64,000 bases of DNA. Source: Octopus vulgaris (Eukaryota). A program made the position numbers and the translations under genes. Location of the stretch: assembly GCA_951406725.2 (NCBI GenBank), contig OX597828.1:806001-870000 (forward strand), given 5' to 3'. The notes under the pieces are model-generated. The model saw only the letters and a list, made by a program, of their open reading frames with translations, did not search any database and was not told the DNA's origin. This document shows, piece after piece, positions 1-59,299 of the stretch. Each line of letters begins with the position of its first letter. Within the stretch, counting starts at the first letter, position 1.

Positions 1-1142
1 CTATCACCGACACCCAGGAGAAAAGAATGGTATGATAAGAGGACCATTGTTTACAGGGTGTGCGCAAACGAAAGGAAGAGGGTAGAAGTTGTATCCATGG
101 AATGGATAGAGGAAGCCCTGCGAAGAACTGAGGAGGAAATAAATTTTCTGACTCGAGGATCCAAGTACGGGACCGTAGTTGTGCACTTTAAAAGTGAATC
201 TGCAGCGAGGAAGATGGCAGCGAAGGCGGTGAAGTCGGAAAAGGTAACACTGTTACCTACGTATTTAAACAGGAGGATTACACGAATAAGGGTGGAGGGA
301 GTGCCACCAAACGTGGAGGCAGAATGGATTGTGGCGGCTGTGATCAGCGGCCACGAGGACGAAGTGGATATTCTCCATGCCTCGGTTAAGTCCGAGGGCT
401 GGAGAGGCGTAACAGTGGAGCTGAACGTACAGGCAGAGACCGAGGTACTGGTGGACCTGACGGAAAGCATCAGACTGGGAGAAGTGATCATGAGAGTGTG
501 GGTGGAGGGCAGGGCTCCACGTTGTTACAAGTGTGGCCTGAGGGGTCACATAAGAGCCTTCTGCCCTCCCCCAGGGAAAGAAATGGATCCCGAACCAGAG
601 AGAGAGAAGCAGAAACCAGAGGAGAAGGAAACAGAGGAAGAGAATACACAGAAATGGAAGGAAGCTGGAAGTAAGAGGAAGAGAAGAATATGTGGAAAAA
701 AAGAAAATAATATGGAACTCCAATCTACCCCAAAACCTCCCACACCCTCTGAGTCCCACCCTATCCATGCAGACATTGAACCCACCCGCTCCCCCCCAAC
801 AAGAAAACAAAAGAAAAAAAAGAATACACACACACAAGAGATTGAAATCGAACCCAGGCCGTACATTTGTACTATGACTGAACAGAGGAAGTTAAAAGTC
901 TAATGGAAGAGTATAAACGGTATGATGTTGGAGAGACTAGGTATGCTGTGATTGAAAAGAAGAACATAGGTGAGTTTATGGGGAGGTGTGAAAGGGAGAA
1001 TTGGGAGGTGAAAGATATAAGAATGAGCGATGAATTCGTGGAAAATATGAATGAGTATTTCGGAGTAAGAATGGATATGGAATTTATTCGTATTGGCAAA
1101 GAACATTCAAGTGACTATGAAAAACAAAGGACAGGTAAGTGA
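1..1142 (+). pseudogene. Gag-like ORF1 of copy 1, broken by a 1-bp frameshift near 888
   Basis: ORFs 58-903 and 903-1142 together match the C-terminal 380 aa of ORF 1457-2875. GAACAGAGGAAG here versus GAACAGAAAGAAG in copy 2. Confidence 0.85.
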
Positions 1143-1294
1143 TGCTGACGGACGGGGCCGTTGGTATCGCTTTCATTTTATCATTTTTTTCGTTTAACAC
1201 TTCATGTTCATATAGTTTAATTATAATGTTCTATGTCCCCATGTTTTGTGATGTCCGGCACTCTTCGTAGCCCCTTAGTGGGTAATAAAGAAAT
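1..1294 (+). mobile_element. ORF1-only (HAL1-like) Tx1-type non-autonomous retroelement, copy 1 (5' part outside window)
   Basis: Near-identical to 1733-3027 (offset 1732/1733). Encodes a gag-like ORF1 with CCHC knuckle CYKCGLRGHIRAFC. A short 3' UTR ends GCCCCTTAGTGGGTAATAAAGAAAT. No ORF2. Confidence 0.85.
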
Positions 1295-3027
1295 ACGTTT
1301 TTTTTCGGCTCCTGAAATTCGGTAAAAAAGAACAAAAAGCGTTGTTGTTGTTGTGGAAATTCTGAACGGCGTTGACGCGGTTTCGCGTTTCGCTCGTTCA
1401 GCGCGTTACACTTTTTCTGTTTTGGCGGCCGTTCTCGGTCTGTCAGACAGAAGGAAATGGACTATGAGTCTCTAACAGACTTGTCCACGACAGATGAGGA
1501 ACTGGAACAGGCAATTGCAATGAAGCTGATGGAAGAAAAGGCTGGAATTTTCGAGTCTTTATCAGACCTGCCTACGTCTGAGAAAGAGCTAGAAATGGCA
1601 GCAAGGAATTTGGAAGAGAAGCTGGGTTATACCTATGCCGGTGTAACCAAGAAGGCGGAAGAGAAAGGGGTAGACATGGCCAAGTTGCCAAGTTACCAGA
1701 AATACATGAAAAAGGAAAGCGGTGAGGTGGAACTATCACCGACACCCAGGAGAAAGGAATGGTATGATAAGAGGACCATTATTTACAGGGTGTTCGCAAA
1801 CGAAAGGAAGAGGGTAGAAGTTGTAACCATGGAATGGATAGAGGAGGCCCTGCGAAGAACTGAGGAGGAAATAAATTTTCTGACTCGAGGATCCAAGTAC
1901 GGTACCGTAGTTGTGCATTTCAAAACTGAGTCTGCAGCGAGGAAGATGGCGGCGAAGGCGGTGAAGTCAGAAAAGGTAACCCTATTACCTACGTATTTAA
2001 ACAGGAGGATTACACGAATAAGGGTGGAGGGAGTGCCACCAAACGTGGAGGCAGAATGGATTGTGGCGGCTGTGATCAGCGGCCACGAGGACGAAGTGGA
2101 TATTCTCCATGCCTCGGTTGGGTCCGAGGGCTGGAGGGGCGTGGCGGTGGAGCTGAACGTGCAGGCAGAGACCGAGGTACTGGTGGACCTGACGGAAAGC
2201 ATCAGACTGGGAGACGTGATCATGAGAGTGTGGGTGGAGGGCAGGGCTCCACGTTGTTACAAGTGTGGCCTGAGGGGTCACATAAGAGCCTTCTGCCCTC
2301 CCCCAGGGAAAGAAATGGATTCCGAACCAGAGAGAGAGAAGCAGAAACCAGAGGAGAAGGAAACAGAGGAAGAGAATACACAGAAATGGAAGGAAGCTGG
2401 AAGTAAGAGGAAGAGAAGAATACGTGGAAAAAAAGAAAATAATATGGAACTCCAATCTACCCCAAAACCACCCACACCCTCTGAGTCCCACCCTATCCAT
2501 GCAGACATTGAACCCACCCGCTCCCCCCCAACAAGAAAACAAAAGAAAAAAAAGAATACACACACACAAGAGATTGAAATCGAACCCAGGCCGTACATTT
2601 GTACTATGACTGAACAGAAAGAAGTTAAAAGTCTAATGGAAGAGTATAAATGGTATGATGTTGGAGAGACTAGGTATGCTGTGATTGAAAAGAAGAACAT
2701 AGGTGAGTTTATGGGGAGGTGTGAAAGGGAGAATTGGGAGGTGAAAGATATAAGAATGAGCGATGAATTCGTGGAAAATATGGATGAGTATTTCGGAGTA
2801 AGAATGGATATGGAATTTATTCGTATTGACAAAGAACATTCAAGTGACTATGAAAAACAAAGGACAGGTAAGTGATGCTGACGGACGGGGCCGTTGGTAT
2901 CGCTTTCATTTTATCATTTTTTTCGTTTAACAATTCATTTTCATAAAGTTTAATTATAATGTTCTATGTCCCCATGTTTTGTTATGTCCGCCATTCTTCG
3001 TAGCCCCTTAGTGGGTAATAAAGAAAT
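1295..3027 (+). mobile_element. ORF1-only (HAL1-like) Tx1-type non-autonomous retroelement, copy 2 (complete, about 1.73 kb)
   Basis: About 160-nt CpG-rich 5' UTR with a hairpin at 1362-1401, an intact ORF1, and a 150-nt 3' UTR with the same tail as copy 1. Confidence 0.85.
1457..2875 (+). CDS. Gag-like ORF1 nucleic-acid-binding protein (472 aa; RRM-like region plus CCHC zinc knuckle)
   Basis: Intact ATG-TGA ORF with Cx2Cx4Hx4C. Aligns by eye with the LINE ORF1 at 3262 (RGSKYGTVVVHF vs RGKKYGTVEVRF; VEGRAPRCYKCG vs VEGRKPRCFGCG). Confidence 0.9.
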   Translation: MDYESLTDLSTTDEELEQAIAMKLMEEKAGIFESLSDLPTSEKELEMAARNLEEKLGYTYAGVTKKAEEKGVDMAKLPSYQKYMKKESGEVELSPTPRRKEWYDKRTIIYRVFANERKRVEVVTMEWIEEALRRTEEEINFLTRGSKYGTVVVHFKTESAARKMAAKAVKSEKVTLLPTYLNRRITRIRVEGVPPNVEAEWIVAAVISGHEDEVDILHASVGSEGWRGVAVELNVQAETEVLVDLTESIRLGDVIMRVWVEGRAPRCYKCGLRGHIRAFCPPPGKEMDSEPEREKQKPEEKETEEENTQKWKEAGSKRKRRIRGKKENNMELQSTPKPPTPSESHPIHADIEPTRSPPTRKQKKKKNTHTQEIEIEPRPYICTMTEQKEVKSLMEEYKWYDVGETRYAVIEKKNIGEFMGRCERENWEVKDIRMSDEFVENMDEYFGVRMDMEFIRIDKEHSSDYEKQRTGK

Positions 3028-3261
3028 CACATGGAGGAAATCAATTTTTTGCGTTATTAGTAAGTTGATATATATTTTTGCTCTCATACTACTTATCTCT
3101 GTTATTATATACTGTTGGTCTACCTTTTTTTTTGTCCATTGTTGTCTAACCGACGAAGTCAACCTTCGCGCGAAGACTTCGCGTTGGTGTTCCCCCCTCA
3201 GTGGGGGAAAACTACAATTAATTTAGATCTACCAAAGGCTTGTTAAAGCCATTTGTTCAAG

Positions 3262-4637
3262 ATGGAGTCCCCCATCACTTATTCGCCCGTGACGAGCGAG
3301 GATGAATACCCGGCGTTGTCGCCAAGTAAAAAAGAGGCGTTGTCGCCAAGAAAAAAAGAGGCGCTGTCGCCGAAGAAAAAAGAGGCGGCGTCGCCCAAGA
3401 AAATGGTAAAACCAGTACCAGCATCAACTCCAGCAAAAAAATTCGCTGAAGTGGCTGGGAAGAAAATTAAAAAAATTAACGTGGACAACCTGGGAAAACA
3501 TGCGGACTGTGTGTCAAAAGAGGGCACGGAAGTAACCGTGGCTTCAAACGCCCAAATACAGGAGGATATTTCGAATAGGAGAATAATCTATAAGACATTC
3601 AGTATAACAAACAGAGCAATCCAAAAAATAGAGGAGAAAAAGATTGAAAACTGCTTAAAGCCAATAATGGATAAAATTACGTATATCAATCGAGGGAAGA
3701 AATACGGCACAGTGGAGGTGAGATTCACGTCAGAGGAGGTAGCGAAGAAGCTATCCATGGAACCCATAAAAGCGGAGGATATTGTTCTCCTACCCCTGTA
3801 TAAAGGCAAGAGAACTTCCAAGATCACAATGAACAACATCCCGCCAGAAGCGGATGCCGAAGTCCTAGTGGCAGCAGTTATGGTAGGCCTGGAGGAAAAA
3901 ATAAACATCCTCCAGGCCACCGTAGAAGAAGAAGAATTCTGGAAAGGGCAAAAGATAATAATAGCCATACAAGCAGAAGTACAAACCCTGGAAGAGATCC
4001 CAGAGACTCTAAGGATAAGCGAAGATGAAAGAGTCACAGTCTTCGTAGAGGGCAGAAAGCCGAGGTGCTTCGGCTGCGGTAAGAAGGGGCATGTAAGGGC
4101 GGAATGCCAGCCCCAACCCAAACCGCAGGAAGCACCTAAGCCAAAAGAAAAGAAGACAATGTGTCACCAGAAGCAGCGTCAGACGGCCCAGAAGGGAAGA
4201 CTGAAGGTGTGGAGGTGATGGTAACAGCAGAACCAGCGGCGGAGAAAAAAAGAGCGAGGAAAAGATAAATGAGGAGGGGTGGGCAAAAATTATCGGAAAA
4301 AAAAAAGAAAAACGGAAACCACCCCTCCCAGAGTAATTTTAAAAAAGAAAAAAGAGTCAATGAACTCATATATGGCCGTAAAAGCATCAAATAGCAGACT
4401 CGGAAACGTGTTGGCAGCCATGGCCAAAGTGAAGAAAGTAGAGAAAAAAATGACTTTGTAATTTACAAAATAGACCGGAAGGATTACGGGCGGATAAAGT
4501 CAGAATTCTTCCATGACGTAGGCCCACTTAGGTTGGATGTAACATCTCCACATATATTCGAGGGCCTACGTCAGACTCCCCCACGAGGCCCAGAAAAAGA
4601 GAAGGAAGAAGAAGAAAAAACCGAACCACTGATATAA
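3262..4637 (+). pseudogene. LINE ORF1 (gag-like, CCHC), frameshifted in A-runs after about 4150
   Basis: ATG at 3262 and knuckle CFGCGKKGHVRAEC. Coding-like sequence continues in shifted frames (EDNVSPEAASDG..., MNSYMAVK..., DFVIYKIDRKDYG...) to a stop just before ORF2. Confidence 0.75.
3313..3400 (+). repeat. 24-bp tandem repeat encoding ALSPxKKE (about 3.5 copies)
   Basis: GCGTTGTCGCCAAGWAAAAAAGAG units giving ALSPSKKE ALSPRKKE ALSPKKKE AASPKK. Confidence 0.85.
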
Positions 4638-4646
4638 AGGTAAGTA

Positions 4647-7600
4647 ATGGATTACATTTATGTTGGTTGTTTAAATGTGCGCGGCCTGGGAGCAGGCTGG
4701 AAGCAAGGTCGCTTCCTGCATGATATCAGGTCGCGTAATTTAGATGTTATTGTTGCTACAGAAACCCGGTTAGAGGGGCCAAGAGGTCTACTCCCGCTGT
4801 TTGACGGCTACGAGAGTTTTTTCTCTCCTGGCAGTCCTACAGGCGGGAGTGGGGTGTTGGTCCTATTAAAAAGAAACCGGGTTTCTGAGAAAAAGTTAAT
4901 TTTTGCAGATCCAGAAGGTAGGCTGGTCGTCATGGATTTGACGTTCAGTAATGGTAAAGTTATCAGACTGGTTGCAATTTACGCACCCAACCATACAGGG
5001 CAAAGTGATTATTTTCGTGAACTAGAAAACTTTCTTGGTACTTCGCATTCATTAGTGGTGCTAGGAGACTTTAACACAATTTGCAAAGCGGATGTAGATT
5101 ATGTTGGCTCGTGTCCAGATAGAAAAGGCAACAGTGGCTTCATGGAACTGCTAAGCCGCTTTGAGCTAGCAGATCCTTATAGGCTGGAATTTCCGAACGC
5201 TCCATTGTGGACATGGTCAAACAGCGACGGATCTTCCAGGTCGTATCTAGATAGAATACTAATTAGAAAAGTAGACAGTAAAATAGCTAAGTGTCCACAG
5301 TTTTACCCGATCAGCTACAGTGATCATAAAATGGTCACTTGTAAGCTTGACATAGATAAGGTTAAAAATAGAGGATCCGGTTACTGGAAACTTAATACGT
5401 CCCTTTTGGCGATTAAGGAGTACAAAGACCGGATTAGGAATATAATTCAGAGGGCACTATCTGGTACCATCATTAATAACAAATGGTGGTACGCCCTCAA
5501 ACGAGCCATCAAGTTTGAGTCTATTAGATATAGCATAGGAGTAGTGGCTAGAGAGGCTAGAAGGGAAACTACTCTAGTTAAGGAATTAGAGGAAGCCATG
5601 AAAACTGGCTCTGCGGCTCAGGTGGCGGCCAAGAGACTGGTGTTAAACCAGCACCTCGAGGCCAAACACATGGGCTGCATTGTCAGGGCTAGAATCCGTC
5701 ATATGGGATGTGAAGGAATCAACGCCGTGAGATGGGCCCGAGTGGTGGAAGCTCAGCATGGTAACGATGCCACGATTCGATCTTTGACGAACCAACAAGG
5801 TGAGTTGATAAACGAACCCGAGGAGATGTGTGAGGCCTTTCAGGAGCACTTCGCTCAGCTTTTCGATGAGTGCGGCGGACTGGATAGGAGGAGGGCCTTT
5901 ACGGACCTACTCGACGGTCTGCCGCGCTTATCGGGGCGAGATGCGGAGGGCTGTGAAGGGCCAATCACGCCTGAGGAGGTGGTTGAGGCAATGGCGGACT
6001 GCGGTGCGGGCAAGGCGCCGGGTTTGGATGGTCTACCCTATGAGTTATATAAGAGTATGCCAGACTTGTTCGGGCACCTACTGGCGGAGGTCTACGCGAA
6101 CTGGCAGCAGAACGGGCTTATACCCAGATCTGTGCGCCGGGGAGTAGTGACTCTCGTCAGAAAGGACCCGAGCAAGGGGGAGTGCATTGATAATTTCAGG
6201 CCCATCACTCTGCTAAACACAGAGTTGAAGATTTTGGCCAAAGTGTTATCGAAAAGATTGGCGCGTGTCGCGGATGGTCTGATCGGAGGGGCACAGACAT
6301 GTGCCGTTCCGGGCAGATCCATTCAGGATAATCTCCATCTAATGCGGTACACTATAGAGGGGTTTAATAGTGATTCTGGCAAGGGTGGGGCACTGGTCCA
6401 TTTAGACCAATCTAAAGCTTTTGATAGGGTCGACCATCGTTACCTGGTATCTGCCCTGGCACAGTTCGGGCTGAGCCTTGGATTCCTCAGGTGGATTATC
6501 GAAATTTATGATAACATCGACTCGGTAGTTCGGGTGAACGGCTTCTTGTCGAAGCCGTTCAAAATCAAACGCTCGGTTCGTCAAGGGTGTCCGCTCTCCC
6601 CGCTTTTGTACGTGATGGCTCTTGAGCCATTACTGCGAAAACTGAGCGGCATCCCGAGACAGCCAGGTAATGGAAAATCAGTGTCAGCGTACGCGGATGA
6701 CATCACCATCATCGTAACCGAAATGGACCACCTATGTAAAGTAGGCAAGGCCATAGAGGTGTACGAGACGGTGACAGGAGCAAAAGTTAATCGCGAAAAG
6801 TCAGTCGGCTTGCAACTCGGCACCTGGAGAGGCAAGTCGATGCCTCCTGACAGCGTCGTGGGACGTTGGACGGAGGGTCCGATTAAACTGCTAGGGGTCT
6901 GGTTCGGTCCAGACCTCCAAATAGAGAAGAATTGGGGCGAGGTAACGAGCAAGGTGGCTGCAGTAGCCAAGACCTGGTCTTGGCGGTGGCTATCCCTGAA
7001 AGGGAGGGCGGAGGTGGCCAATGTGTTTATCGCATCGGTTATCACCTACCGCCTTTCCGTCGTTCCTTGCCCTGATTCGTGGTTGATCAAATTGGAAAGA
7101 CAGCTCTTCTACTTCTTGTGGAAGGGCGGGAAACCACTTGTGAAACGCTCTACTTGCTGTCAACAACCGTTAAAGGGTGGGCTAGGGATGCCTTGGCTGA
7201 TGATGCGCAGACATGCGCTGAGGTTAAGACATCTGTGGCTCTACCTGGATGGTGAACGGGTGTGGTCTTCGCTAGCAAAACTGATGTTTCCCAAGTTCAC
7301 TAGTTTCGGTGGATGGGAAACCTGGCTGAATCGTAGATCGAAACTTGGTACTTGGTACACGGAGTGTCGCAAGGCTCTCCTGCTATTCCGTCGCTCGGGC
7401 AACGCCTGCGGTGGGGGTTCCACCACTTTCTTCTATAGAGGGTTGGTAGAGGCGGAATGTGAAGATACCTTGGGGGAAACCCTAGGTCTCGACGATAATC
7501 AGCTGGCCAGTCTGTTCCGACGTACGTTCGAGCCAAGGACACTGGACAACTTCCAGAAGTCTCTGGCATGGCAATGCTACAGAGGAGCTCTACCTGTTCG

Positions 7601-8042
7601 GGATAAACTCGCAAGGCACGGTGGCCAAGACAGTCCGATATGCCCAAGATGCGGGCGGGATAGGGAAACCGTCCCGCACGCGATTGTTCATTGTCCGGAC
7701 GTGTCTGAGGTGTGGGTTTATGCCGAACACCTGTTGTCAGGTACACGAAGAGTACAGCTGTCGACTGAGTCGATTACAAAAATTGACCCACCGGATTTCC
7801 TCGTGAATGAAGGTAAGTTTCGTTTTCTCGTTGTAGTAGCAATCGCGAAAGAGGTGATATGGAAGACGAGAATGAAAGGTTTACAGTCAGGCAAGTTCAT
7901 CTCCGGCCCTGGTTTGATGAATTATTTCATCTTTCACCTGAAAAGGAAGATAGGGCTGGAGAGAATATGCCTGACTAGGAGAGCGTATGAAGAACGATGG
8001 AAGGATGTAGCACGGAAGTTGCGAATGAAAGTTACAACATAA
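4647..8042 (+). CDS. LINE ORF2: APE endonuclease, reverse transcriptase and C-terminal CCHC (1131 aa, intact)
   Basis: APE motifs NVRGL, ETRL, IYAPN, GDFN, LDRIL, SDH. RT motifs KAPGLDGLP, FRPITLLN, LDQSKAFDRV, RQGCPLSP, YADD. C-terminal CPRC..ETVPHAIVHC. Confidence 0.96.
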   Translation: MDYIYVGCLNVRGLGAGWKQGRFLHDIRSRNLDVIVATETRLEGPRGLLPLFDGYESFFSPGSPTGGSGVLVLLKRNRVSEKKLIFADPEGRLVVMDLTFSNGKVIRLVAIYAPNHTGQSDYFRELENFLGTSHSLVVLGDFNTICKADVDYVGSCPDRKGNSGFMELLSRFELADPYRLEFPNAPLWTWSNSDGSSRSYLDRILIRKVDSKIAKCPQFYPISYSDHKMVTCKLDIDKVKNRGSGYWKLNTSLLAIKEYKDRIRNIIQRALSGTIINNKWWYALKRAIKFESIRYSIGVVAREARRETTLVKELEEAMKTGSAAQVAAKRLVLNQHLEAKHMGCIVRARIRHMGCEGINAVRWARVVEAQHGNDATIRSLTNQQGELINEPEEMCEAFQEHFAQLFDECGGLDRRRAFTDLLDGLPRLSGRDAEGCEGPITPEEVVEAMADCGAGKAPGLDGLPYELYKSMPDLFGHLLAEVYANWQQNGLIPRSVRRGVVTLVRKDPSKGECIDNFRPITLLNTELKILAKVLSKRLARVADGLIGGAQTCAVPGRSIQDNLHLMRYTIEGFNSDSGKGGALVHLDQSKAFDRVDHRYLVSALAQFGLSLGFLRWIIEIYDNIDSVVRVNGFLSKPFKIKRSVRQGCPLSPLLYVMALEPLLRKLSGIPRQPGNGKSVSAYADDITIIVTEMDHLCKVGKAIEVYETVTGAKVNREKSVGLQLGTWRGKSMPPDSVVGRWTEGPIKLLGVWFGPDLQIEKNWGEVTSKVAAVAKTWSWRWLSLKGRAEVANVFIASVITYRLSVVPCPDSWLIKLERQLFYFLWKGGKPLVKRSTCCQQPLKGGLGMPWLMMRRHALRLRHLWLYLDGERVWSSLAKLMFPKFTSFGGWETWLNRRSKLGTWYTECRKALLLFRRSGNACGGGSTTFFYRGLVEAECEDTLGETLGLDDNQLASLFRRTFEPRTLDNFQKSLAWQCYRGALPVRDKLARHGGQDSPICPRCGRDRETVPHAIVHCPDVSEVWVYAEHLLSGTRRVQLSTESITKIDPPDFLVNEGKFRFLVVVAIAKEVIWKTRMKGLQSGKFISGPGLMNYFIFHLKRKIGLERICLTRRAYEERWKDVARKLRMKVTT

Positions 8043-8290
8043 ATGTAATACCAAGTGCAACCAAAAGTATCAGTGGGGAGGCGGGGCTCGTGGGGTCCGA
8101 GCTAAACCCGCACCCACTCCACCCGTAATGTCTTCCGGTCTGTCCTATCACTCGATTTCTGTCCATTTATTGTTATTCATGAAAATTTTTAAACCCGATT
8201 TATTGTAAAAACCCATTCGTTTGTCTGACCCCATCATCAGATTGTATTGTCCCATCTGTGTTCGCCCCTTGTGGGTAATAATAAAACAAC

Positions 8291-8620
8291 ATGGAGGAAA
8301 GCACCTTCTAAAAGTGTCTTGGTGCGACTATGAAAGGTATCTAATCAGAGGCGGTAAATTCGTCACATTAGAAGCAAGGTTCGAGTCAACGGAGCGTGCA
8401 AGGGAGTACTCGACTCGAACTTGCAAAGTGGAAATATTTTATTTTTACCTTTATATCTGGGACGTAGGACGTCCCGGAAAAAAATTTTAAATCCACCCCA
8501 CCCCTCACCCCCAGAAGTAGAGGTATGCTGGATTGTAGCTACACTTCTATACAAGAGGGCGGACAAGATACAATTGATCGAAATTACAAGAGACGGGCTA
8601 ACAATTCCAGTCTGTTATAT
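8291..8620 (+). pseudogene. Decayed ORF1 fragment of a third related Tx1-type family (insertion target of the LINE)
   Basis: Across frames it reads MEESTF*KCLGATMKGI / RGGKFVTLEARFESTERAREYS / ILFLPLYLGRRTSR..PPEVEVCWIVATL, colinear with both ORF1 proteins. Confidence 0.75.
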
Positions 8621-8799
8621 ATTTTGAGTATTGTTATCACTAGCGATATCAAGGTATAACTTTGTATTTTGTATTTTATGTGTAGATGTATATATATAGA
8701 TGTACATGTAATATGTACACATATATATACACATATATACATGCACTAGCACTATGAACCGGCAATGACGGTTCTTTAATACTAGTATGATATAAAGAA

Positions 8800-9190
8800 T
8801 TAAATTCGTAAAATAAAAACTGAAATATTCAAATTTGAAATACTAAATTTGAAATATTAAATTAGAAATACTAAATATGAAACATTTAATTAGAAATATC
8901 AATTTCGAAAAACGAAATATTAATTTAAAGCCTTAAATATAGGATTTTGTATATGAAATATTAAATCTCAAATATCACATTTTTCAAATTAACTACTTAA
9001 TTTGAAAAATGTCATATGACGAATGAAATTTAAAATGCAAAATTTGAAATATTAATAAAATAATATACTTGAAATATTAATATAAATTATGAAATATTAG
9101 CTCAATAAAATATAAAATATTGTTTCAATGTATTAAAAAAATATGAAATAAATTCGTGATAACAAATATCAATTAAAACTAATTAAATAC
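8800..9190. repeat. Degenerate AT-rich minisatellite (about 15-bp AAATTTGAAATATTA-like units)
   Basis: Recurring GAAATATT/AAATTT motifs. Confidence 0.55.
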
Positions 9191-9212
9191 CAACAATACG
9201 TCATTTTGCTAG

Positions 9213-9396
9213 AAAAGAATTCATCTACGGTTCTTGTGACAGTATGGCCTATATCCGAAAATTCTCCACCAGAACTGATCAAATGTTACTACAGAATACA
9301 CTTCAGGGACACGGGGGTGATGTTGTGGCATGTAAATGGAATCCCTTCATTAACAAATGGATTACAGCTGCGGAAGATGGAATCATCAGAATTTGG
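9213..9396 (+). CDS. WD40-repeat protein, internal exon A
   Basis: Acceptor ttttgctAG and donor GTaaaa. Encodes KEFIYGSCDSMAYIRKF...LQGHGGDVVACKWNPFINKWITAAEDGIIRIW, a GH...W WD repeat. Ends in phase 0. Confidence 0.88.
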
Positions 9397-9512
9397 GTAA
9401 AACTTTTTTCTTCGTTTCACGGTTTTTTAAATTGACTTGTGTGTGTGTGTTGCGTGTGTTTGTGCGTGTGTGTGTGCGTGCGTGCGTGCGTGTGTGTTTG
9501 TGTGTGTGTGTA

Positions 9513-9548
<36 letters not shown>

Positions 9549-10849
9549 ATATTGTGTATTATTGAGTTTTGTTTTCTGAATAAGATTATTCTCGATCTAA
9601 ACGTCAACGGTTCTTTTTGCTCCCGGAGCTTCAGACAGTCACCTTGCGCAAGACATTGATTCTCGCTGCTCTAGTCCACCTTACTAAGTATTGATGGAAT
9701 GAAGTTTACTTTTGAAAAGACAGAAATACTCGACTTCTGTATCCATAGATAACATTATCCATATCATTATCTAGAGATATTTTACTTTATTTTCTACATT
9801 CCGATAACTCACAAACCGGACGTCTCATTTCTCTTTGAAACCCAAATTTGTAATATTTTTCTCTGACACATCTATGTTGTCTAGGCTTCATCCTACACGC
9901 AAAATTTATCTTGAAAGGCGATTTTTTTCACTTATAAAGAACCTAATTCCTTGCTTACAACTAAACAAAACAACGTTGAAGCTTTGAAACAAGAAAATGA
10001 ATCCTTTGAGGACTTTAATGTGAAAAACTTGTCTTAGCTTTTTCATGGCGCCCAAACCAACACTGGCATAGCAGAAAGCGAATAATTTGCCAACCATATT
10101 AAACTGTACGCACCAGTTAGTTATCTGTATTACTCACAATTAGGCTAACGCAAAGTCACTCAGTTATCTTCCTTGCTATATCCATCTGAATGCTTCACAC
10201 AACCAAAGTCCTCCGTCGCACAAACCGTCAAATGGTTCGTTTGCAACTATACAAACATTTTTGGACACAACTTCAGACTGTCTGGGCGCATCCCCCACCA
10301 CCACACATACACATTGTAAAATTCATGGAGATTGGGGTTTTAGGTATTTTACAATAAATATGTCTCTCCTAATCAACAAATCGTCATTTGAGTCTCCCAA
10401 TCAACAATGGTACCTTGTTATTCCTAAAATTGCTATACGCGAATAATAGTAAAAATTGAGGACAAGACATTAAGGCACTTAAAAATAAGTATATATGGCA
10501 GGCAATTAAGGGATTAAATATAGGCATTTAAGGCACTAAAATAAGCATTTATACCACCAACAAATGTGGATTTAAACAAGTAAACGTAGCATTTATAAGG
10601 AACGTAGGTGTTTGTGGCACTAAAAATTAGTATTGTGTAACGAAGAGGAAGTACTGCATAACAAGATATGCTGATGGGATCGTAAATATAGTCATGAAGT
10701 GAGGGTTAAGCCTGTTTATTATTCAGTAGAAAGTGTTTATAACTCAAGTAATAAAATGAAATTAGTCAAAATGAAAATATTTATTACAACGTAAAATATG
10801 GTAACATAATTTTGCATTATTTGATTAATGGAATTTATAATCCATATGA

Positions 10850-11765
10850 AACAGAAAAGTTTTAATAAGCAAATATATAGATAGAAAAGAGAACACGCTT
10901 TCTAAAAATAAAACTTTAAGAACTTTTGCAATATCATTAATCTGTTGTCGGCTAGTATTGGCATCAATCACTTTTTGGCACTTTTTAGCTATGTGTCTGC
11001 CCCTCTCTCCGAGAGTACTCCTTACCTTTTCAACTGTGCTGTTAAACAAAGATAGAGCTCAGATTTTCTAAAGCTAATATAGTTTGTGGTAGTGTTTTAA
11101 AATGTGCAACAATAAAGAAGCGATCGCCATGAACACCGGAGTTACGAATCAAATCTTGGACAATACGTGTAGAAGAAGCTTAACGGTATCAACATTTGAG
11201 GAATAATATGCAGCAGCGATTATCCGCGTTCCCCATCTTGTGAGAATGGGTTACGGAGGTAAACTCAGTGTTGGTGCATGCTCGCAGAAAAGTTCACACT
11301 TACATGGAGATTTAAGAAATATATTTTTACCATTTTGCAATCAACCTGTCAGCATCTGGAAATTGTAAGCGTACTTCTTCGGAAATTCTATGCAATCCAT
11401 ATATTAAACATGTTACATGGATCATGCGACGAAGCAGTGTCTTTTTCATAAAAGATACAGCATCTGTCACAAATAGTAAGACATTGTCATACTTGAAACC
11501 ATCAGTCCATGGTAATGCTAAAGAAGAAGTGAATAGATGAGTGATAGAACTATTAATAGCAGTAAGAAATTCTGGTGTTAATAAATGCATATTAGGGCTA
11601 TCGGACTTTTCTAAAGTACCTACAATAACATTCACAAGGTACCTTCCCAACAAGTCAGTGGTTTCATCTATCGAAATTCAAATTCCAAGCAGCGATTATC
11701 CACATCCCCATCTTGTGAGAAGGGATTGCGGAGGTAAACTCAGTGTTGGTGCATATTCGCGAGAG
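10850..11765 (-). mobile_element. Decayed hAT-like (DUF659-type) DNA transposase fragment
   Basis: GRYLVNVIVG, VLLFVTDA, MIHVTCLIYGLHRISEEVR and LPP*PILTRWGT motifs with stops. A segment of about 75 bp (11212-11285) is duplicated at 11688-11760. Confidence 0.7.
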
Positions 11766-12294
11766 TGTGGTGTGTATATACTTAACTAGCTGAAAAGCCG
11801 CCCAACAGGGCAGCTTTTAAACTAGCTCCTGTGGAGAGCTCCTCATTAGGTCTTGGGACCCAACATGACACTTCATGCATTGAGTATATATTAAATTTTA
11901 TTAAATTTGAACAATATTTTTCAAGTAATGAACAATTTTCATCAAAACAATAATATAATTTGTCGACTTAGAATTTATTGCAAAGCTGTATGATAAACAA
12001 CAGTACCACCACCATCACCACCGCATCTGCAATCCACACACCATTCAGACTTTTGACGCCACTACCACCAATACATTTGACTTTGCCGCCTTTCCTTCCA
12101 TCACCACCACTGCTGTCTTTCACATCGCTTACTCTCATCGTTATTCCTGACCACAACTACCATCATCACCGCCGCCTCCACATCTATCACATATACAGCT
12201 CATGCTATTACTATCACCCCATTACCATCACAAAAAGGCTAAATGTGTTTGCAAAAGAATTCAATGTTCAGTATGTTTCTCAGTATGTTATATA

Positions 12295-13700: not shown

Positions 13701-15047
13701 CTTAGAATAACTTAGAAAGGTTTTAGCCAGTATTGGCCCAGGCTATGTCTAACTTAATAGCACCACCTGGTGAAGTTTTTCAATTCAGGATTTGGGCACC
13801 AAGGCCCATTCGAGCAGAGAGTTATTGTTTGCGGAGACATATCCGGGTGTGGGTGGTTTGTCCGGGACTGTTTGAAGGAATTTGTCCAAAATCTTCTTGA
13901 ATTTTGTGTAGTCAGTTTCTGTTTTGACGTGTCTTGGTGTAATGTTGAAGAGGGCGGGTCCAATTGAGGTGAAATAATTGTGCAGTAATGTTGTTATGAG
14001 ATGCGATTGAGATTTTTGTTGTGGACGGATGGCACGGGGTCCGAGTCTTGGATGTATTTTGAAGGTGATACCAACATCATTTGGACAGTGCTGATGGAAT
14101 ATTTTCCACATCATACAGATGATGTAGCGTTCACGGCGTGAATACAGTTTCAGCTTTTCCAGTCGATCCCAGTAGTCAAGGTCTGACATGCCATCTATCT
14201 TTTTCGTGATTGACCTTTGGGGAGCTTCAACTTTCATAATATTTTGTTTTGTGTAGGGAGACCACAGTGGACAGCAGTATTCAAGGTGGGGTCGGGCAAA
14301 AGTAGAGAAGAGAAGGATAATAGTGTGGGAATCTCTCGACTGGAAAGTTCTGAGAATCCAGGAACACATTCTGCGGGCCATGTCAACTTTGCTGCTTATA
14401 TGTGTAGCCCAGCTTATGTTGTTGTCCACAGTTACTCCCAGGTCTCTGATGTTGTTAGACGCCATGAGAGTTTCACCAGAAGGAAGGGAGTATGGGAGTT
14501 TCAGAGCGTCCTCCCTTCCAAAGTGGATCAATTCGAATTTGTCTTCGTTTAGCAACATGTTGTTCTTTTCCGCCCATTGGACAACAGCCAGTAGGTCTGA
14601 CTGAAGGTTTATTCGGTCATCCACGCCATTGATGACCTTCTGGAGCTTGGAATCATCAGCTAAGATTCTGATGTTACTATATTTGATGATGTCAGTGATG
14701 TCATTAATGTAGATGATGAAGAGAAGTGGGCCCAACACAGTGCCTTGTGGGACACCACTACTGACTTTGGCTGGGCTGGATTTGACTCCTTCGACTACAA
14801 CATGTTGGGTTCTGTTAGACAGGAAGCACTTGATCCACTGCAGTAGCTTTCCAGTGACACCAATATTGGACAGCTTTCTCAAAAGGATCTTATGATCAAC
14901 CCTGTCAAAGGCCTTGCTGAAATCAAGGTAGATAACATCAGTGTTGGAACCCTCTCCCAAGGCTCTCAAAATGTCATAGAAGTGATACAGTAGCTGCGTC
15001 AGACAATCCCTTCCATTACGGAATCCATGCTGGTTGGAGTTCAGCAT
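13700..15047 (-). mobile_element. 5'-truncated CR1-group LINE (RT C-terminal part and 3' tail)
   Basis: QHGFR, YLDFSKAFDRV, SGVPQGTVLGPLLF, ADD, RPHLEYC..WSP. The tail ends in TTCTAAGTTA repeats. Confidence 0.85.
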
Positions 15048-15593
15048 ATATATAATCCTTTATCTTTCTGTCTGTTCCCAATATATTCTAAAATGGATCA
15101 ACCACATCAAATCAAATTTTACATGGTAATACTATGAGACCCCGTGAGTGTCAACATGTAATTCTGGGGGAATTAAAATAATCCAACATTGGCATTGGTT
15201 CCGTATTACGCCTCAAAACTCGGAGAATAAAAATGAAAGAAAAACATCTGTATTGTAATGTGATATATTGTTTCCCTTCCATACTTTTAATTTTAATAAC
15301 CACGACGACGATGTGAGTGTATAAGTGTGTAGATGTCTCACAGCCTGTGTGTCTTTCCACGTTAGGTACGTTATTAAATATATTGTTTCATTTTTATACT
15401 TTAAATTCTAACCACCACTACCACCACCACGACAACCTTACATTTTGTATATGACTATGTATCTGTCTGTCTGTGACGGTATGAGTGTGTATGTTTCACA
15501 GTGTGTATCTTTCCGCGTTAGGTACGTTATTAAACATACTATATGTATTTGAGGGTAGTATATAAGATATAATATATAACATATAATTGACAG

Positions 15594-31621: not shown

Positions 31622-34600
31622 TCAACAGCCTATCTTTGAAGCTGTAAGGTTATCGTTCTCAGGAAGTACCGGGTCTTTCATCCAGTCAATTAATCCTTTC
31701 ACACTGACAATGTATACATCGGACAATTCCTCAACCAGTCCCAGGAAAGCGTTTAAACCTTTGAGGTTTTCTTCGTTGTTCGGTAAAAACCAGTCCGATC
31801 GTAAGCGAACACCAAAAGGCGTTCGATCTCTTTTGTAAAATGCCATGAAATTACTTAGAAGGAGATCATAGGTTTGCACCGCAGTCTGGGGTTTGTTATA
31901 GCAACTGTCAACAAATTTACACAAATACCTTTTCTTAATTCCAACATAAGGAACAGCAGGGACTTCCCAGAGACCCTTAAATTTTTTAGTAGGACACTGT
32001 TGTAGCAAGCAGTTTTTCTTCCATCCAAAGTCTAAGGTAGACGGCCAAATTCCTGTCCTATTCTCTAAATTTGTCATTACAAACAGTGACGAATCATACA
32101 GCATCTTACTATTTTGCAAATTTTCAAATTGAACGTCTCCTTTCGATTGAAGATCAATATTTCTCCAGCCAAATATTTTGTCATGAGATACATTAGCATA
32201 TCGGTTAAGCAAATATTTTTGCAAAGCAATTTCCATATTTAAAAGATTACCGGCCAGATTCTTCTTTTTTAACCCATGTAATGCAATTTCCATTCCTTCG
32301 TCGTAAAGCTCTTTAATAGCGGTATAATTAGATCCTTCGGATGTGACAAATAAGGTGCTTTTAATCCGGCAACCATTTGCATTTAACCTTTCGGCATGAA
32401 AAAGCCCTTTAAGTTTTTCAGTAATAGAAGAATTGATAGATCCTTCGTAAGTGAAATAAACGAATTGAGGAATTTTCTTCGATGTTGTTGGGATATGGAA
32501 TTGGTGACATTGACAACCTGGTTTATAGCAGTTCTTCCCTTGTTGACAGGATTCCGAAACTGATACATTGCTGTCGTCATTTGATTTCGAAGGACTGCTG
32601 TTGCTGCTACTACTATTACTAAGTTCCAAATGTTCATCCAGTGGGTCTGACGAAAATTCTCGAGATTTCACAAAGCCTGGTAATAAAGCGGATTTTGTAT
32701 ATCTACTTGTAAGAATATTTCGCTGACCTACACTTTTATTTTTATATCTGTTATTAATATTTATTCCAGTAGTAAAATCCAAGAAAGTTTTTCTTAAATC
32801 AGAGTATTTTGTTTTTAAATATTGTCCCCTTTCTAATGGAAGAATTTCGGCCTTTTTAGATAAAATAGCTTCTTTTTTCGGTGAAAGTATTTTAACTGTT
32901 TCTGATGATGGAATTTCTAATTTTTCAAATGGACGAATTTTGGTTATTTTAGATTTCAATAAATTTCTCATTGTTGTCATCGGTTTCACGTTTAACTCCT
33001 TCAAACCGTTTTCATAGTCCAACTTCTGCTGTCTGTTGTGGATTAATATTACCGGCTCACGGTAATCCTTGTTTGTAAGAAGTTGCCTGTCTATCGAATT
33101 ATTCTTTGCAACTAATATCACAGCGCTATCGTGGTTAGACGAATCTTTCGTAATTATCTTCTCTAGCTCCTTATCATTTTTCATTACCAGGCTGGCCGCT
33201 ACTCGGAATAAGTTTGATTTTCTATGAAAAACACTTTGAAGTGAATGTCTACTAGTGTCAATATTACTTTGGTCATTTTCATTTCTATTGTGTATGTTCA
33301 TGTTAGAATTGCTTTGAATAGGTAAGCTTCTTGTCTTCTTGATATCTGAATTTTCCTCGGCTGCGCTTCTCTCAGAAAAAACTTCAGGGAATTCGAATTT
33401 GTCTCTTTTATCACTTTTCAGTGACCGTTTATGGAGAATATTAGTTGGTACAGAATCAGAGGTCTGATAGGAAGTTCTCAACGTCACAGAAGACTCATTC
33501 AGTGGAGTCAGTGTCGTCTGAGAAATATTTTGTAATTTATTTCGACTGGCTGTATTCGAAGGTGACAGTGTCGAGTGAATTAATTCTCTTGTTGAATTGA
33601 AACTATTACCGATAGGCTGGGTTTGAGATGGTGTTGACTGAAAATTATATCCTTCCGTTACAAAATTATTAGAAACTTGTTGGGTTTGCAGCGATTGTAA
33701 CCTTGCGCTCGGGCCATTGTTATTGTTCCCTTCCATGTTTTGTGACATCATCACGTTTGTAGTGATTTCTCCCATCAAGACTGTTGTTGCTAGTTTCGTT
33801 GACGAAATCGTTTCTACAGAAACTATGGTTTGGTTTGGGAAACTGGAATATTGGTTTATGGAACTGGTGGTTTGATTTGGGAAACTGGAAGATTGGTTTA
33901 TGGAACTGGTGGTTTGATTTGGGAAACTGGAATATTGGTTTATGGAACTGGTGGTTTGATTTGGGAAACTGGAAGATTGGTTTGTGGAACTGGTGGTTTG
34001 ATTTGGGAAACTGGAAGATTGGTTTGTGGAACTGGTGGTTTGATTTGGGAAACTGGAATATTGGTTTATGGAACTGGTGGTTTGATTTGGGAAACTGGAA
34101 GATTGGTTTGTGGAACTGGTGGTTTGATTTGGGAAACTGGAATATTGGTTTATGGAACTGGTGGTTTGATTTGGGAAACTAGAAGATTGGTTTGTGGAAC
34201 TGGTGGTTTGATTTGGGAAACTGGAAGATTGGTTTGTGGAACTGGTGGTTTGATTTGGGAAACTGGAATATTGGTTTATGGAACTGGTGGTTTGATTTGG
34301 GAAACTGGAAGATTGGTTTATGGAACTGGTGGTTTGATTTGGGAAACTGGAAGATTGGTTTGTGGAACTGGTGGTTTGATTTGGGAAACTGGAATATTGG
34401 TTTATGGAACTGGTGGTTTGATTTGGGAAACTGGAAGATTGGTTTATGGAACTGGTGGTTTGATTTGGGAAACTGGAATATTGGCTTATGGAACTGGTGG
34501 TTTGATTTGGGGAGTTGTTTGTTTGTTTTGGCGAAATGGTGGTTCCGTTTAGGTAACCGTTGGTTTGGTTCTGACATTGAAACGGAGCAAATTTGGACAA

Positions 34601-35602
34601 CTCATTTAACGATGGTTGGTGCTTCATCCATTCCACAATCTGTTTAATATTAACAACATAAACGTCATTGAGGCCGAGGATATAGTCTAAAAATCGATGC
34701 ATGGCTTTCATTCGGTATGGGTTCGTCTCATATTCTTGCAACAACCATGTTGAATGCATGTTCAAGCCAAGTGGTGCCTTGTTCATAGTGTAGTAACTCA
34801 TGAAATTTTCCAGCAAGAAATTGAATGATTCTTCTTCGTTTGTTGGTGAATTCGCACATCCGTCCACATAGACGCAAGGATAACGAGCCAGTTTGTCAAG
34901 CACTGTCACGATAGGTACTTCCCAGAATCCTTGAATATTTTCGGTCGGACATTCGGGAATGCTGCAAGGATATGGCCAACCATAATCCATCGTAAATGGA
35001 ACTGGGGATTCTTCAATCAGTGACCTTTTGGTGATAGTCAAAGTTGAATCGTAGGCAAAACCTGCCTTACTCAGTATTTCAAACTGTTCGTTTCCGTAAG
35101 CTATTAAATACGGACTTCTGAATCCGACAATTTCTTCTTTGGGTATCTGCGATCGATTGGCAAGGTTTAACCGTTGACCGAGTGCTTCGTATGAAAACTG
35201 AAGAGCATTCAGTGATCTTATATGATTGATGCCATGCACTGCTATATCCATTCCTTGGTCATAGAACTGCTTCACCAAGTCGTAATCGGTATCGTTATGC
35301 GACACGAACAAAGTCATCGAAATTGGGCACTTATTTGGATTTGTGCGGCTTTTATTGAATAATTCTTCATAAAGAGGAGAATTTCGAACTGTCACTGCAT
35401 CGTCGAACGAGAAGTAAACCAACTGAGGCCTTTGTGACTTTTTACCGGGGATTGTATGGCCACAGCAGGAGCAGTTTGGCAGAGTGCAGTGACCCGTTGT
35501 TCTACATTTATTGCATTCGTTTGGTGTAGTGCGTATGTTGGCGAGGACGATAGAAGCAGAAAAGATTGCCAATGACAAAACGAAAAAGAATGGGAAGTTC
35601 AT
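31622..35602 (-). CDS. Secreted tandem chitin/polysaccharide deacetylase-like protein (CE4): intact domain, Ser/Thr/Asn repeat, degenerate second domain; 1326 aa in one uninterrupted ORF
   Basis: Hydrophobic N-terminus. Domain 1 has SFDD, HGINH, GFRSPY, YDST, WEVP and PLGLNMH. Domain 2 has TYEG, HGLKK, GWRNID, YDSS, WEVP and PFGVRLR. Confidence 0.92.
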   Translation of the reverse strand: MNFPFFFVLSLAIFSASIVLANIRTTPNECNKCRTTGHCTLPNCSCCGHTIPGKKSQRPQLVYFSFDDAVTVRNSPLYEELFNKSRTNPNKCPISMTLFVSHNDTDYDLVKQFYDQGMDIAVHGINHIRSLNALQFSYEALGQRLNLANRSQIPKEEIVGFRSPYLIAYGNEQFEILSKAGFAYDSTLTITKRSLIEESPVPFTMDYGWPYPCSIPECPTENIQGFWEVPIVTVLDKLARYPCVYVDGCANSPTNEEESFNFLLENFMSYYTMNKAPLGLNMHSTWLLQEYETNPYRMKAMHRFLDYILGLNDVYVVNIKQIVEWMKHQPSLNELSKFAPFQCQNQTNGYLNGTTISPKQTNNSPNQTTSSISQYSSFPNQTTSSINQSSSFPNQTTSSINQYSSFPNQTTSSTNQSSSFPNQTTSSINQSSSFPNQTTSSINQYSSFPNQTTSSTNQSSSFPNQTTSSTNQSSSFPNQTTSSINQYSSFPNQTTSSTNQSSSFPNQTTSSINQYSSFPNQTTSSTNQSSSFPNQTTSSTNQSSSFPNQTTSSINQYSSFPNQTTSSINQSSSFPNQTTSSINQYSSFPNQTIVSVETISSTKLATTVLMGEITTNVMMSQNMEGNNNNGPSARLQSLQTQQVSNNFVTEGYNFQSTPSQTQPIGNSFNSTRELIHSTLSPSNTASRNKLQNISQTTLTPLNESSVTLRTSYQTSDSVPTNILHKRSLKSDKRDKFEFPEVFSERSAAEENSDIKKTRSLPIQSNSNMNIHNRNENDQSNIDTSRHSLQSVFHRKSNLFRVAASLVMKNDKELEKIITKDSSNHDSAVILVAKNNSIDRQLLTNKDYREPVILIHNRQQKLDYENGLKELNVKPMTTMRNLLKSKITKIRPFEKLEIPSSETVKILSPKKEAILSKKAEILPLERGQYLKTKYSDLRKTFLDFTTGININNRYKNKSVGQRNILTSRYTKSALLPGFVKSREFSSDPLDEHLELSNSSSSNSSPSKSNDDSNVSVSESCQQGKNCYKPGCQCHQFHIPTTSKKIPQFVYFTYEGSINSSITEKLKGLFHAERLNANGCRIKSTLFVTSEGSNYTAIKELYDEGMEIALHGLKKKNLAGNLLNMEIALQKYLLNRYANVSHDKIFGWRNIDLQSKGDVQFENLQNSKMLYDSSLFVMTNLENRTGIWPSTLDFGWKKNCLLQQCPTKKFKGLWEVPAVPYVGIKKRYLCKFVDSCYNKPQTAVQTYDLLLSNFMAFYKRDRTPFGVRLRSDWFLPNNEENLKGLNAFLGLVEELSDVYIVSVKGLIDWMKDPVLPENDNLTASKIGC
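33835..34510 (-). repeat. Coding minisatellite, 16 x 42 bp, encoding PNQTTSS(I/T)NQ(S/Y)SSF
   Basis: Direct reading; 21-bp sub-period. Confidence 0.95.
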
Positions 35603-36114
35603 AATGATTGCTTAGACAGTTATCAAAGAAAACAGAGCGAGCGAGGACGGTAAGATATTATTATTGTTGTTGTCGCTGTTGTTGATGATGACAAGGATGA
35701 TGACGTGCCTTGTTTACGGTTTTCTTAGTTGTTGTTATTGTTGTTGTTGTTGTTGTTGCTGTTGTTGCCGATAACAATGATGCTGACTGATACTGTTATC
35801 AATGTTGTTGTTCAGCCCTGATCGAGAAGACCTTTGATCAAAGTTATTTCAGTCCGAACCCATTCCAGCGATGGTCATCTGCCTTGCTAACGGTAACTTG
35901 GACTACATTATGCAATGAACCATTCCCCTTTCTTTTAATATGGTCGGGTGTGATTCGAAGGAGGTTTTATTGATATTACTAACAGGTCAAGCGGCCGCCC
36001 AAAAACTTGATACAAAGAATTTGCATGTGTGTATGTAAATGTATTTATGTATATATTTTTTATATGTATGTATGTAGTGTCCGTGATCACTATCTTCAGC
36101 TACGGCGCCACCAG

Positions 36115-58360: not shown

Positions 58361-59299
58361 TTTTAATTTTGCAAACAAACATTTCAAGACTGCATATTTC
58401 GACTTGACAGATAAATGTCCGGATTGTCACTATTACAATTATCAGAGATTTGCAGTTTTAGGACAATATTTTACAAAGTCTCATATTTTAAATCTGACAT
58501 ACAGGTTATAGCTCCATAGTTAGATCTTCATGGTAACATTATTCCAAAACTCAAGTTATGTTTAAAAACAAGCAAATGTCCATAGTGAATCAAATAAAAC
58601 ATATAATACTTGCTTTTTTTATTCCACTCAGCAATCTTGTGAGAATTTTTTCCCAAAAAATTCACAAAATCCATAACAATTACAACAAATACAAAAATAA
58701 AACTAAAACAACAAAAATACAAAAAAGGGTTTTCAATAAAATAAGTCAGAGTCTGGAAATCTGGTAGCTAAAACCGAAATCAGGTAAGCAGTCTTACCAT
58801 AATATTTACTTGATCCATTTTGAATAAAGTCGTTAGCTTCGTTATATGAAAGCATCAGATCGTCTGCTAAATCTTCTGCCTTTATGCAAGATCGTCTGCT
58901 TCTGCTTCCCTTAAGCTCAGTAATTCACTGTGATACACATACACACACGTATACACATGCAAATACACAGATGCATTTTTATGTGCAGTAAACACGCATT
59001 CACATATGCATATACACAAGTACTACAACACACACACACATTAACACACTGTCTCACACACATTCACACAAACACTGTCTCACACATGCTTACATACACA
59101 CACACACATTGTACACACTATGTAATAAGAATGTGACATCATGATGGCATTATCAGAGGCTTGCATAGTTCAATGGTTTAAGAGGGAGAGGGGTGAAGAA
59201 AGAGAGGGAAAGAGAGAGACAGAGTGAGGAGGCGGAGAGTGAAAAGGGGGCGTGAAAAGAGATAGAAATCGAAAAATACATAGATTAACGCACAAACAC

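Follow-up and report, generated by a model that had tools for sequence, protein, structure and literature searches.

What kind of element carries an ORF1-type gene in two adjacent units, with no reverse transcriptase (RT) behind it? The question arises at the start of a stretch of 64,000 nucleotides (nt) from Octopus vulgaris (contig OX597828.1, positions 806,001 to 870,000), to which we refer as the window. There, two related units, A and B, precede a long interspersed nuclear element (LINE) of the L1/Tx1 group; they carry the first open reading frame (ORF1) of such an element and lack the second, ORF2. A sequence-only reading of the locus had proposed that they represent an independent, non-autonomous lineage, and we find that they do: the units belong to a real and abundant ORF1-only family, dispersed rather than produced by a local deletion, whose ORF1 branch is distinct from that of the LINE. 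We are surer of this than of the fuller account, which we nevertheless consider probable, in which A and B are young, abundant, ORF1-only non-autonomous retrotransposons of the L1/Tx1 group in Octopus that move by the mechanism set out below. We call such an element a half-element.

All features of the first 8.7 kb lie on the forward strand. Unit A (1..1294) is the 3' 1294 nt of an element whose 5' part lies beyond the window start, and unit B (1295..3029) is a complete element, composed of a 5' untranslated region (UTR) of ~160 nt, an intact ORF1 of 472 amino acids (aa) that is its single open reading frame (1457..2875), and a 3' UTR of 154 nt (2876..3029). The two stand head to tail at an offset of 1732-1733 nt and are 97.2% identical over 1295 aligned nt; in unit A a 1-nt deletion near 885 causes the ORF1 frame to end at 903. 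No RT or endonuclease was found within 1-3029. Thus, of the two 1.73-kb units without RT originally described, the absence of RT stands and just B is complete in the window; likewise, the CCHC/RRM-like ORF1 ascribed to each is intact in B, while that of A has a frameshift and runs off the window edge. A splice-donor-like motif, GGTAAGT, lies over the ORF1 stop of B (2867..2878), overlapping the stop-start TGATG; it recurs at 1134 in A and at 4639 in the LINE, where the ORF1/ORF2 junction (4639-4649) combines GGTAAGT with TAATG.

Unit B ends at ~3029 and is followed immediately by the 11-nt target-site duplication (TSD) that flanks the LINE. The left copy of this TSD (3030..3040, CATGGAGGAAA) also follows unit-B-type 3' ends in three sequencing runs. 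The LINE, which is of autonomous type and is the candidate helper family, occupies 3041..8289, and the right TSD copy (8290..8300) starts a degenerate ORF1 piece of a third LINE family, family C (8290..8660), the apparent landing pad. We also considered B and the LINE as one element with two ORF1s. This is ruled out, because the LINE has its own TSD and B its own tail, and further by a joint in run X1 that bypasses the LINE.

Is unit B simply the remnant of a LINE that lost its ORF2 by a local deletion and was then duplicated in tandem, with no family behind it? Within the window this would fit, as the units are adjacent and without TSD. Protein searches, however, recovered the C-terminal ~90 aa of unit B in 19 O. 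vulgaris gene models. Seventeen of these, with 89-100% identity, are distributed over 13 distinct contigs (41-226 Mb); the remaining two are P0106 (60%) and P0109 (84%). Seven models stop where ORF1 does, and for the other 12 a comparison of their tails with 121 ORF2 proteins gave no match; an exit from the exon at the GGTAAGT point of the ORF1 stop is seen in 12 of the 19. Five models carry the exon two or three times, which is what tandem copies would give, and C-terminal domains at 60-93% identity remain open in gene models. Furthermore, 19 of 24 listed sequencing runs, under two species labels, contain at least half of the sampled words. Together with level depth into the 3' UTR and an ORF1 only 35% identical to the neighbour's, these results make a local deletion hardly conceivable. 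Had ORF2 been lost locally, the sequence-only reading would have fallen; what we found is copies on 13 contigs with no ORF2 after the stop.

Four of the runs (X1, X4, X9 and X14) were compared with 1295-8660. X9 is DNA-like, and X1, X4 and X14, which are not on record as RNA, resemble RNA data; a GT..AG skip is present in X1 and X14. Among the listed contigs and joints that cross the ORF1 stop, every one continues in a B-type 3' UTR, and no joint between B's ORF1 and an ORF2 occurs among the listed joints of the four runs. The depth of X9 enters the 3' UTR without a drop (531,064 at 2917 versus 274,029 at 2829), and its sum over B is ~15 times that over the LINE ORF1, a ratio that is not a copy number. 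The ORF1-only layout is also found in a contig diverged by ~12%. Since X1, X4 and X14 behave like RNA data, the half-element is probably transcribed.

What protein does the half-element encode? The ORF1 of unit B contains two RRM-like domains (aa ~96-262, in a predicted structure model), a CCHC knuckle (aa 266-281), a low-complexity linker and a C-terminal alpha/beta domain (aa 384-472). The zf-CCHC match is weak (E 0.082), and zf-CCHC is matched in 15 of 46 aligned ORF1 relatives. An AlphaFold model built on 46 sequences has a mean predicted local distance difference test score (pLDDT) of 72.8, with block means of 87-98 over residues 71-280. It resembles tandem-RRM proteins (best Foldseek E 4e-05; best Z 9.3 in the VIA comparison, with a root-mean-square deviation of 2.5 and 82 aligned). 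The modelled RRM folds, combined with the CCHC knuckle, make the predicted protein type I in the ORF1p classification of PMC5203782. Transposase_22, the hallmark of type II ORF1p (coiled coil, single RRM, C-terminal domain), has no match among the 46 aligned ORF1s. We also tried to relate the C-terminal domain of unit B to that of other ORF1s, and rejected the homology (hhalign probability 0.1, profile E 0.21); the LINE's piece scores 1.7e-06 against the same profile. The stand-alone model of this domain (pLDDT 58.9) is too poor for a structure search, and an Atlas search gave no usable match.

The original description of this ORF1 as only distantly related to that of the adjacent LINE is borne out: the two are 35% identical over 236 aa and fall on separate, supported branches of an ORF1-core tree. 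The tree comprises 62 cores, for which 59 of 149 matches were kept (at least 115 core residues covered). In it A and B form one branch (100/99) with P0014 of O. sinensis, 52% identical, as sister (99/100), and the LINE ORF1 stands apart with P0011 and P0012 (100/99); the deeper forks are unresolved. No RRM-CCHC core closer than 52% was found among the best 150 of 813 matches. In metagenome and viral collections, 0 of 246 and 0 of 9 pattern matches were confirmed as ORF1 relatives, and 0 of 389 as relatives of the LINE's ORF2. A word-indexed search for shorter ORF1-core proteins gave none among 131 candidates; HMMER later found many, and the word-indexed search is therefore insensitive here.

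An RNA-binding protein could also be a domesticated host gene, similar to L1TD1 or ZCCHC3, rather than part of a mobile element. The intact reading frame, the RNA-like runs that span it from end to end, and a feature-level likeness to ZCCHC3-domain clusters (score 0.90) are in keeping with this idea. But the many near-identical dispersed copies, the tandem arrays, the retroelement tail, the broken state of unit A and the absence of introns render domestication very improbable.

If the half-element has no RT of its own, which LINE might supply one? The 3' UTR of unit B is homologous to the last ~160 nt of the adjacent LINE: the local score is 63, as compared with a mean of 25.6 and a maximum of 39 in 300 shuffles, and both tails have a terminal C-rich/G-rich hairpin and TAATAA. 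The shared 3' tail, which had been proposed from the sequence, is thereby supported; covariation in a three-row alignment of the tails is uninformative. The LINE has an intact ORF2 (4647-8042, 1131 aa) that matches APE endonuclease, RT and zf-RVT; among solved structures, its best relative is human L1 ORF2p (E 9e-65). Its ORF1 starts at 3262 and is frameshifted in A-runs after ~4150. These frameshifts (4243-4443) lie in A-rich runs where X9 contigs have one extra letter, and either errors in the long-read assembly or decay of this particular copy may account for them. The features of the Tx1 clade seen in the LINE are APE, RT and a C-terminal zinc motif in ORF2, and a type I ORF1p (RRM and CCHC); its putative Tx1 membership is judged on these features of ORF2 and ORF1, and no named Tx1 reference occurs among 120 listed ORF2 matches. 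In X1 and X14 we also observe a high-depth relative of the LINE whose internal skips (4894-5506, 6988-7382, 8143-8235) include one of 611 nt with GT..AG ends. The letters of the dominant LINE-like haplotype in X1, X4 and X14 have single-locus depth in X9, and the relative is probably an expressed, spliced LINE-derived transcript.

Where does the half-element insert? Family C was identified as an ORF1 piece by its tblastn match to the ORF1 of unit B (E 3e-05); identity to its three best representatives is 45-53%, and all four runs show high summed depth across 8290-8660. Unit B, an ~88%-identical relative of B, and the LINE all abut one site inside the ORF1 of family C, a shared insertion site that the sequence-only reading overlooked. 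For example, an X1 joint of depth 148 (3040->8333) connects the 3' end of B to C, bypassing the LINE; the C part of this contig has a short deletion relative to the window. Two further contigs run through the tail to 3040: one from X4 that shows 0 differences over 779 nt, and one from X14 that is ~88% identical (54 other letters and 9 gap letters over 2512-3040). The unoccupied site, before 8292, is found in 33 contigs of X9; on visual inspection, their consensus keeps the reading frame of the family C ORF1. An X1 loose end before the 5' end of B has 11 nt in common with the left flank of the unoccupied site, so that this 5' junction points to a short truncation of the target and not to a duplication. 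A tail-to-head joint (3025->1323) occurs in X9 as well. Among seven visible 3' junctions (window included, which is no census), four are at the target, two are tandem and one is elsewhere. Rfam at gathering level reports nothing in 1-12000, and hence the target is not an snRNA (small nuclear RNA) or tRNA gene.

A common junction need not reflect a target preference. A single insertion into a master copy of C could have been amplified as a composite, in which case the half-element would be a mobile family with no true preference, and Kojima raised the same possibility for SINEU-3 (PMC4494074). X1 and X4 may both show the junction of a single expressed locus, one X14 copy (contig 11) has other sequence as its 3' flank, and 3' flanks are uncounted genome-wide. 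However, the relative at ~88% identity and the LINE, which is unrelated and has a TSD of its own, stop at one common base; moreover, tandem joints are present, and C is unoccupied in 33 contigs. Such hitchhiking is, in our view, distinctly unlikely.

Two further observations concern target sites. The 3' end of a LINE relative (8284-8286) joins family C at 8600-8602, ~312 nt past the main site; this second position is seen in X1, X9 and X14, with 20-30 letters on the short side. Moreover, in the gene model P0109 a B-type exon is continued by the RRM-CCHC half of an ORF1 from a fourth family; P0004 has the same downstream low-complexity part, which hints that other ORF1s are occupied as well.

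Does the half-element's ORF1 evolve under constraint? The earlier hand count of 14 synonymous (S) and 8 nonsynonymous (N) differences between 1-483 and 1733-2215 is exact, and it corresponds to a ratio of nonsynonymous to synonymous rates (dN/dS) of 0.17-0.22 (p<=0.0008). For 484-1140 we count 1 S and 5 N (dN/dS 1.2-1.7), and for the whole shared reading frame, skipping two codons at the indel, 15 S and 13 N (0.24-0.31, p<=0.003); removal of six A-to-G sites, described below, leaves the whole-frame value at 0.23-0.30 (p<=0.006). The signal is carried by a divergent segment of unit A, 1..252, which has 14 differences from B (10 S, 4 N; dN/dS 0.11-0.15, p<=0.0011). Without the six A-to-G sites, 253-1140 is neutral (2 S, 6 N; 0.8-1.1). 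Since the differences concentrate in 1-252 (14/252, versus 16/1042 elsewhere; Fisher p 0.0006), unit A is a mosaic in which 1-252 probably derives from a diverged subfamily. This suggests selection on the RRM region between subfamilies, one of which, the donor, may not be ORF1-only itself. The proposed purifying selection is thus retained for 1-252 and for the whole frame; 1-483 was the favourable part, and the remainder is neutral.

The synonymous excess might, alternatively, have been inherited: 1-252 of A could have come by template switch or conversion from an ORF2-bearing family, with ORF1 a recent passenger in the half-element. The mosaic structure of A and its neutral remainder would agree with this, as would a sister, P0014, of unknown downstream structure. 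Yet the ORF1-only layout holds in the ~12%-diverged contig, gene models retain open C-terminal domains at 60-93% identity, and the nearest RRM-CCHC core among the best 150 of 813 matches is only 52% identical. We therefore regard an inherited excess as unlikely.

Structure, dispersal, the passage of ORF1 straight into a short 3' UTR, tail homology and the common junction are demonstrated; around them we infer a mechanism by analogy with established L1/Tx1 biology. RNA of the half-element would be translated into its own type I ORF1p (two RRMs and CCHC), which would package that RNA. An ORF2p of the neighbouring LINE's group would mobilise it in trans by recognising the shared 3' tail, and the endonuclease of that group would nick family C just 5' of CATGG and prime reverse transcription. 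Variable second-strand cutting might yield both the 11-nt duplication of the LINE and the blunt or truncated junctions of the half-element. Because the downstream target would survive each insertion, repeated insertion could build head-to-tail arrays; here A would have come before B. Probably the ORF1p is still required in cis; such a requirement would account for the excess of synonymous changes between subfamilies.

Several results weigh against this account. No TSD of the half-element was seen at the A/B junction or at the visible junctions, which are blunt, truncated or tandem, and the TSD-flanked copies that the sequence-only reading anticipated thus did not appear. The 5' UTR of the half-element has no similarity to that of this LINE (score 24, shuffle mean 23.5), which suggests that the actual parent, and perhaps the actual helper too, belongs to a different family; as the tails of unit B and the LINE are also clearly diverged, the adjacent LINE need not be the helper. 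The junctions in the runs come from a listing that leaves 188 joints and 1627 loose ends outside, and the reservations about X1, X4 and X14 contig 11 given above apply here too. Protein collections under-sample masked transposable-element reading frames, so that an autonomous family with the same ORF1 could be missed. Finally, besides the neutrality of 253-1140, dN/dS was obtained from one copy pair and the 1-252 segment was picked after inspection of the data and comes from a donor that may differ in its 3' structure.

Unit B carries a further peculiarity, a cluster of six A-to-G changes (2120, 2121, 2137, 2143, 2144 and 2161), which account for 6 of the 22 differences in the 1-483 comparison and lie within 42 nt. 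At these sites B has G, against an A in unit A and as the majority letter of all four runs. An X1 contig over 1299-2291 has seven differences from B, six of them at these sites; such crowding, six of seven within 42 nt, arose once in 200,000 simulations, and for six of a single class p is ~1e-4. The 5' neighbours are T, A, G, T, A and T (T enriched, p 0.012). Since the G form occurs at depth ~300 in DNA-like X9, at four of the six sites (38-168 in long single contigs), it is not an assembly error. Coleoid repeats are widely edited at the RNA level (PMC9068888), and it is possible that the cluster is the trace of an ADAR-edited RNA template, fixed by retrotransposition; gene conversion may be an alternative source. 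The region folds moderately (z -2.56), with no long duplex.

A more ambitious version of our account would hold that the ORF1 coding region of sibling LINE families is a specific target both of the LINE and of a half-element that encodes a protein and has long been independent, the insertions providing a safe site and disabling competitors; that selection maintains the half-element's own ORF1p, the C-terminal domain of which has diverged or been replaced; and that ADAR edits carried back into genomic DNA are preserved in at least one copy. As a whole we hold this version tentatively, and doubt it more than we believe it.

How does the half-element compare with known systems? ORF1-present non-autonomous LINEs include HeT-A (Jockey), HAL1 (L1) and Ag-Sponge (CR1) (Kojima 2018, PMC5786205). 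HAL1 arose repeatedly (PMC5753468), and telomeric elements have lost ORF2 repeatedly (PMC13534243). Thus, the ORF1-only LINE class is already known; the half-element family and its target were not found described. In the literature searched, to which subscription journals, Repbase and Dfam do not belong, there is no ORF1-only Tx1 derivative, in cephalopods or otherwise, and no Tx1 family that targets a LINE ORF1. A 2026 repeat annotation of O. vulgaris reports 13 recently active L1-Tx1 families with 80 consensus sequences (PMC13282606); the terms HAL1, ORF1 and non-autonomous were not found in its supplement, and its Zenodo library may contain the family unlabelled. The excerpts of PMC8967140 and PMC9115989 do not describe it.

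Like the half-element, mammalian HAL1 is a non-autonomous L1-group derivative that codes just for ORF1p (PMC5753468, PMC5786205). In contrast to HAL1, the half-element has a type I ORF1p with no Transposase_22 match, a mollusc host, no poly(A) tail or TSD seen, an apparent site preference with head-to-tail arrays, and an ORF1 just 35% identical to that of its candidate helper. HeT-A and the ORF2-less telomeric elements of Drosophila are likewise ORF1-only and stand head to tail with an autonomous relative (PMC5786205, PMC13534243), and their dependence on ORF2 in trans resembles that supposed for the half-element; however, they are telomeric and of the Jockey clade, whereas the octopus array is interstitial, in another LINE's ORF1, with no telomere-type repeat in the window and a WD40-like exon 1 kb downstream. 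Ag-Sponge, which is CR1-derived, is also an ORF1-present, bipartite non-autonomous LINE of an invertebrate; it belongs to a different clade, and the consulted text of PMC5786205 gives no target preference for it.

Tx1 families and their client short interspersed nuclear elements (SINEs) prefer DNA transposons, long terminal repeat (LTR) elements, snRNA genes or microsatellites; their insertions are tandem, with both TSD and target truncation, and specificity is assigned when >20% of flanks are of one target type (Kojima 2015, PMC4494074). In Tx1-Mar/SINEU-3, Tx1L in Tx1D, and Tx1-8_Crp, as apparently here too, a Tx1 element and its client share a site in another transposon, and tandem insertions occur with both TSD and target truncation (PMC4494074). 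The octopus case differs in two respects: the site lies in ORF1 coding sequence, that of a related non-LTR family, and the client is itself protein-coding. A true site preference would extend the range of targets listed for Tx1 and provide a new APE endonuclease that is sequence-specific. An abundant L1/Tx1-group ORF1-only element in a mollusc, with an ORF1 just 35% identical to that of its likely helper, would make testable both the need for ORF1p in cis and the recruitment of a foreign ORF2p, and the A-to-G cluster, fixed in DNA, would tie cephalopod repeat editing (PMC9068888) to heritable transposable-element change. There is also a practical consequence for annotation, since at least 17 O. 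vulgaris gene models include the half-element's C-terminal exon as contamination. One of these, the CFAP65-like P0003, ends in that exon, through mis-annotation or exon capture.

Elsewhere in the window, a WD40-like exon lies on the forward strand at 9301-9396 (E 6e-05), and the half-element/LINE array may lie in an intron of a WD40-like gene, in sense orientation. On the reverse strand are two further RT-bearing retroelement fragments (13785-15059 and 49307-50968), with no match to 1-9000 in a self-comparison, and an 862-aa open frame (55838-58426) with no Pfam match at E<=0.1. The reverse strand also carries a 1329-aa open frame (31622-35611) that has a polysaccharide deacetylase match and 16 copies of a 42-bp tandem repeat.

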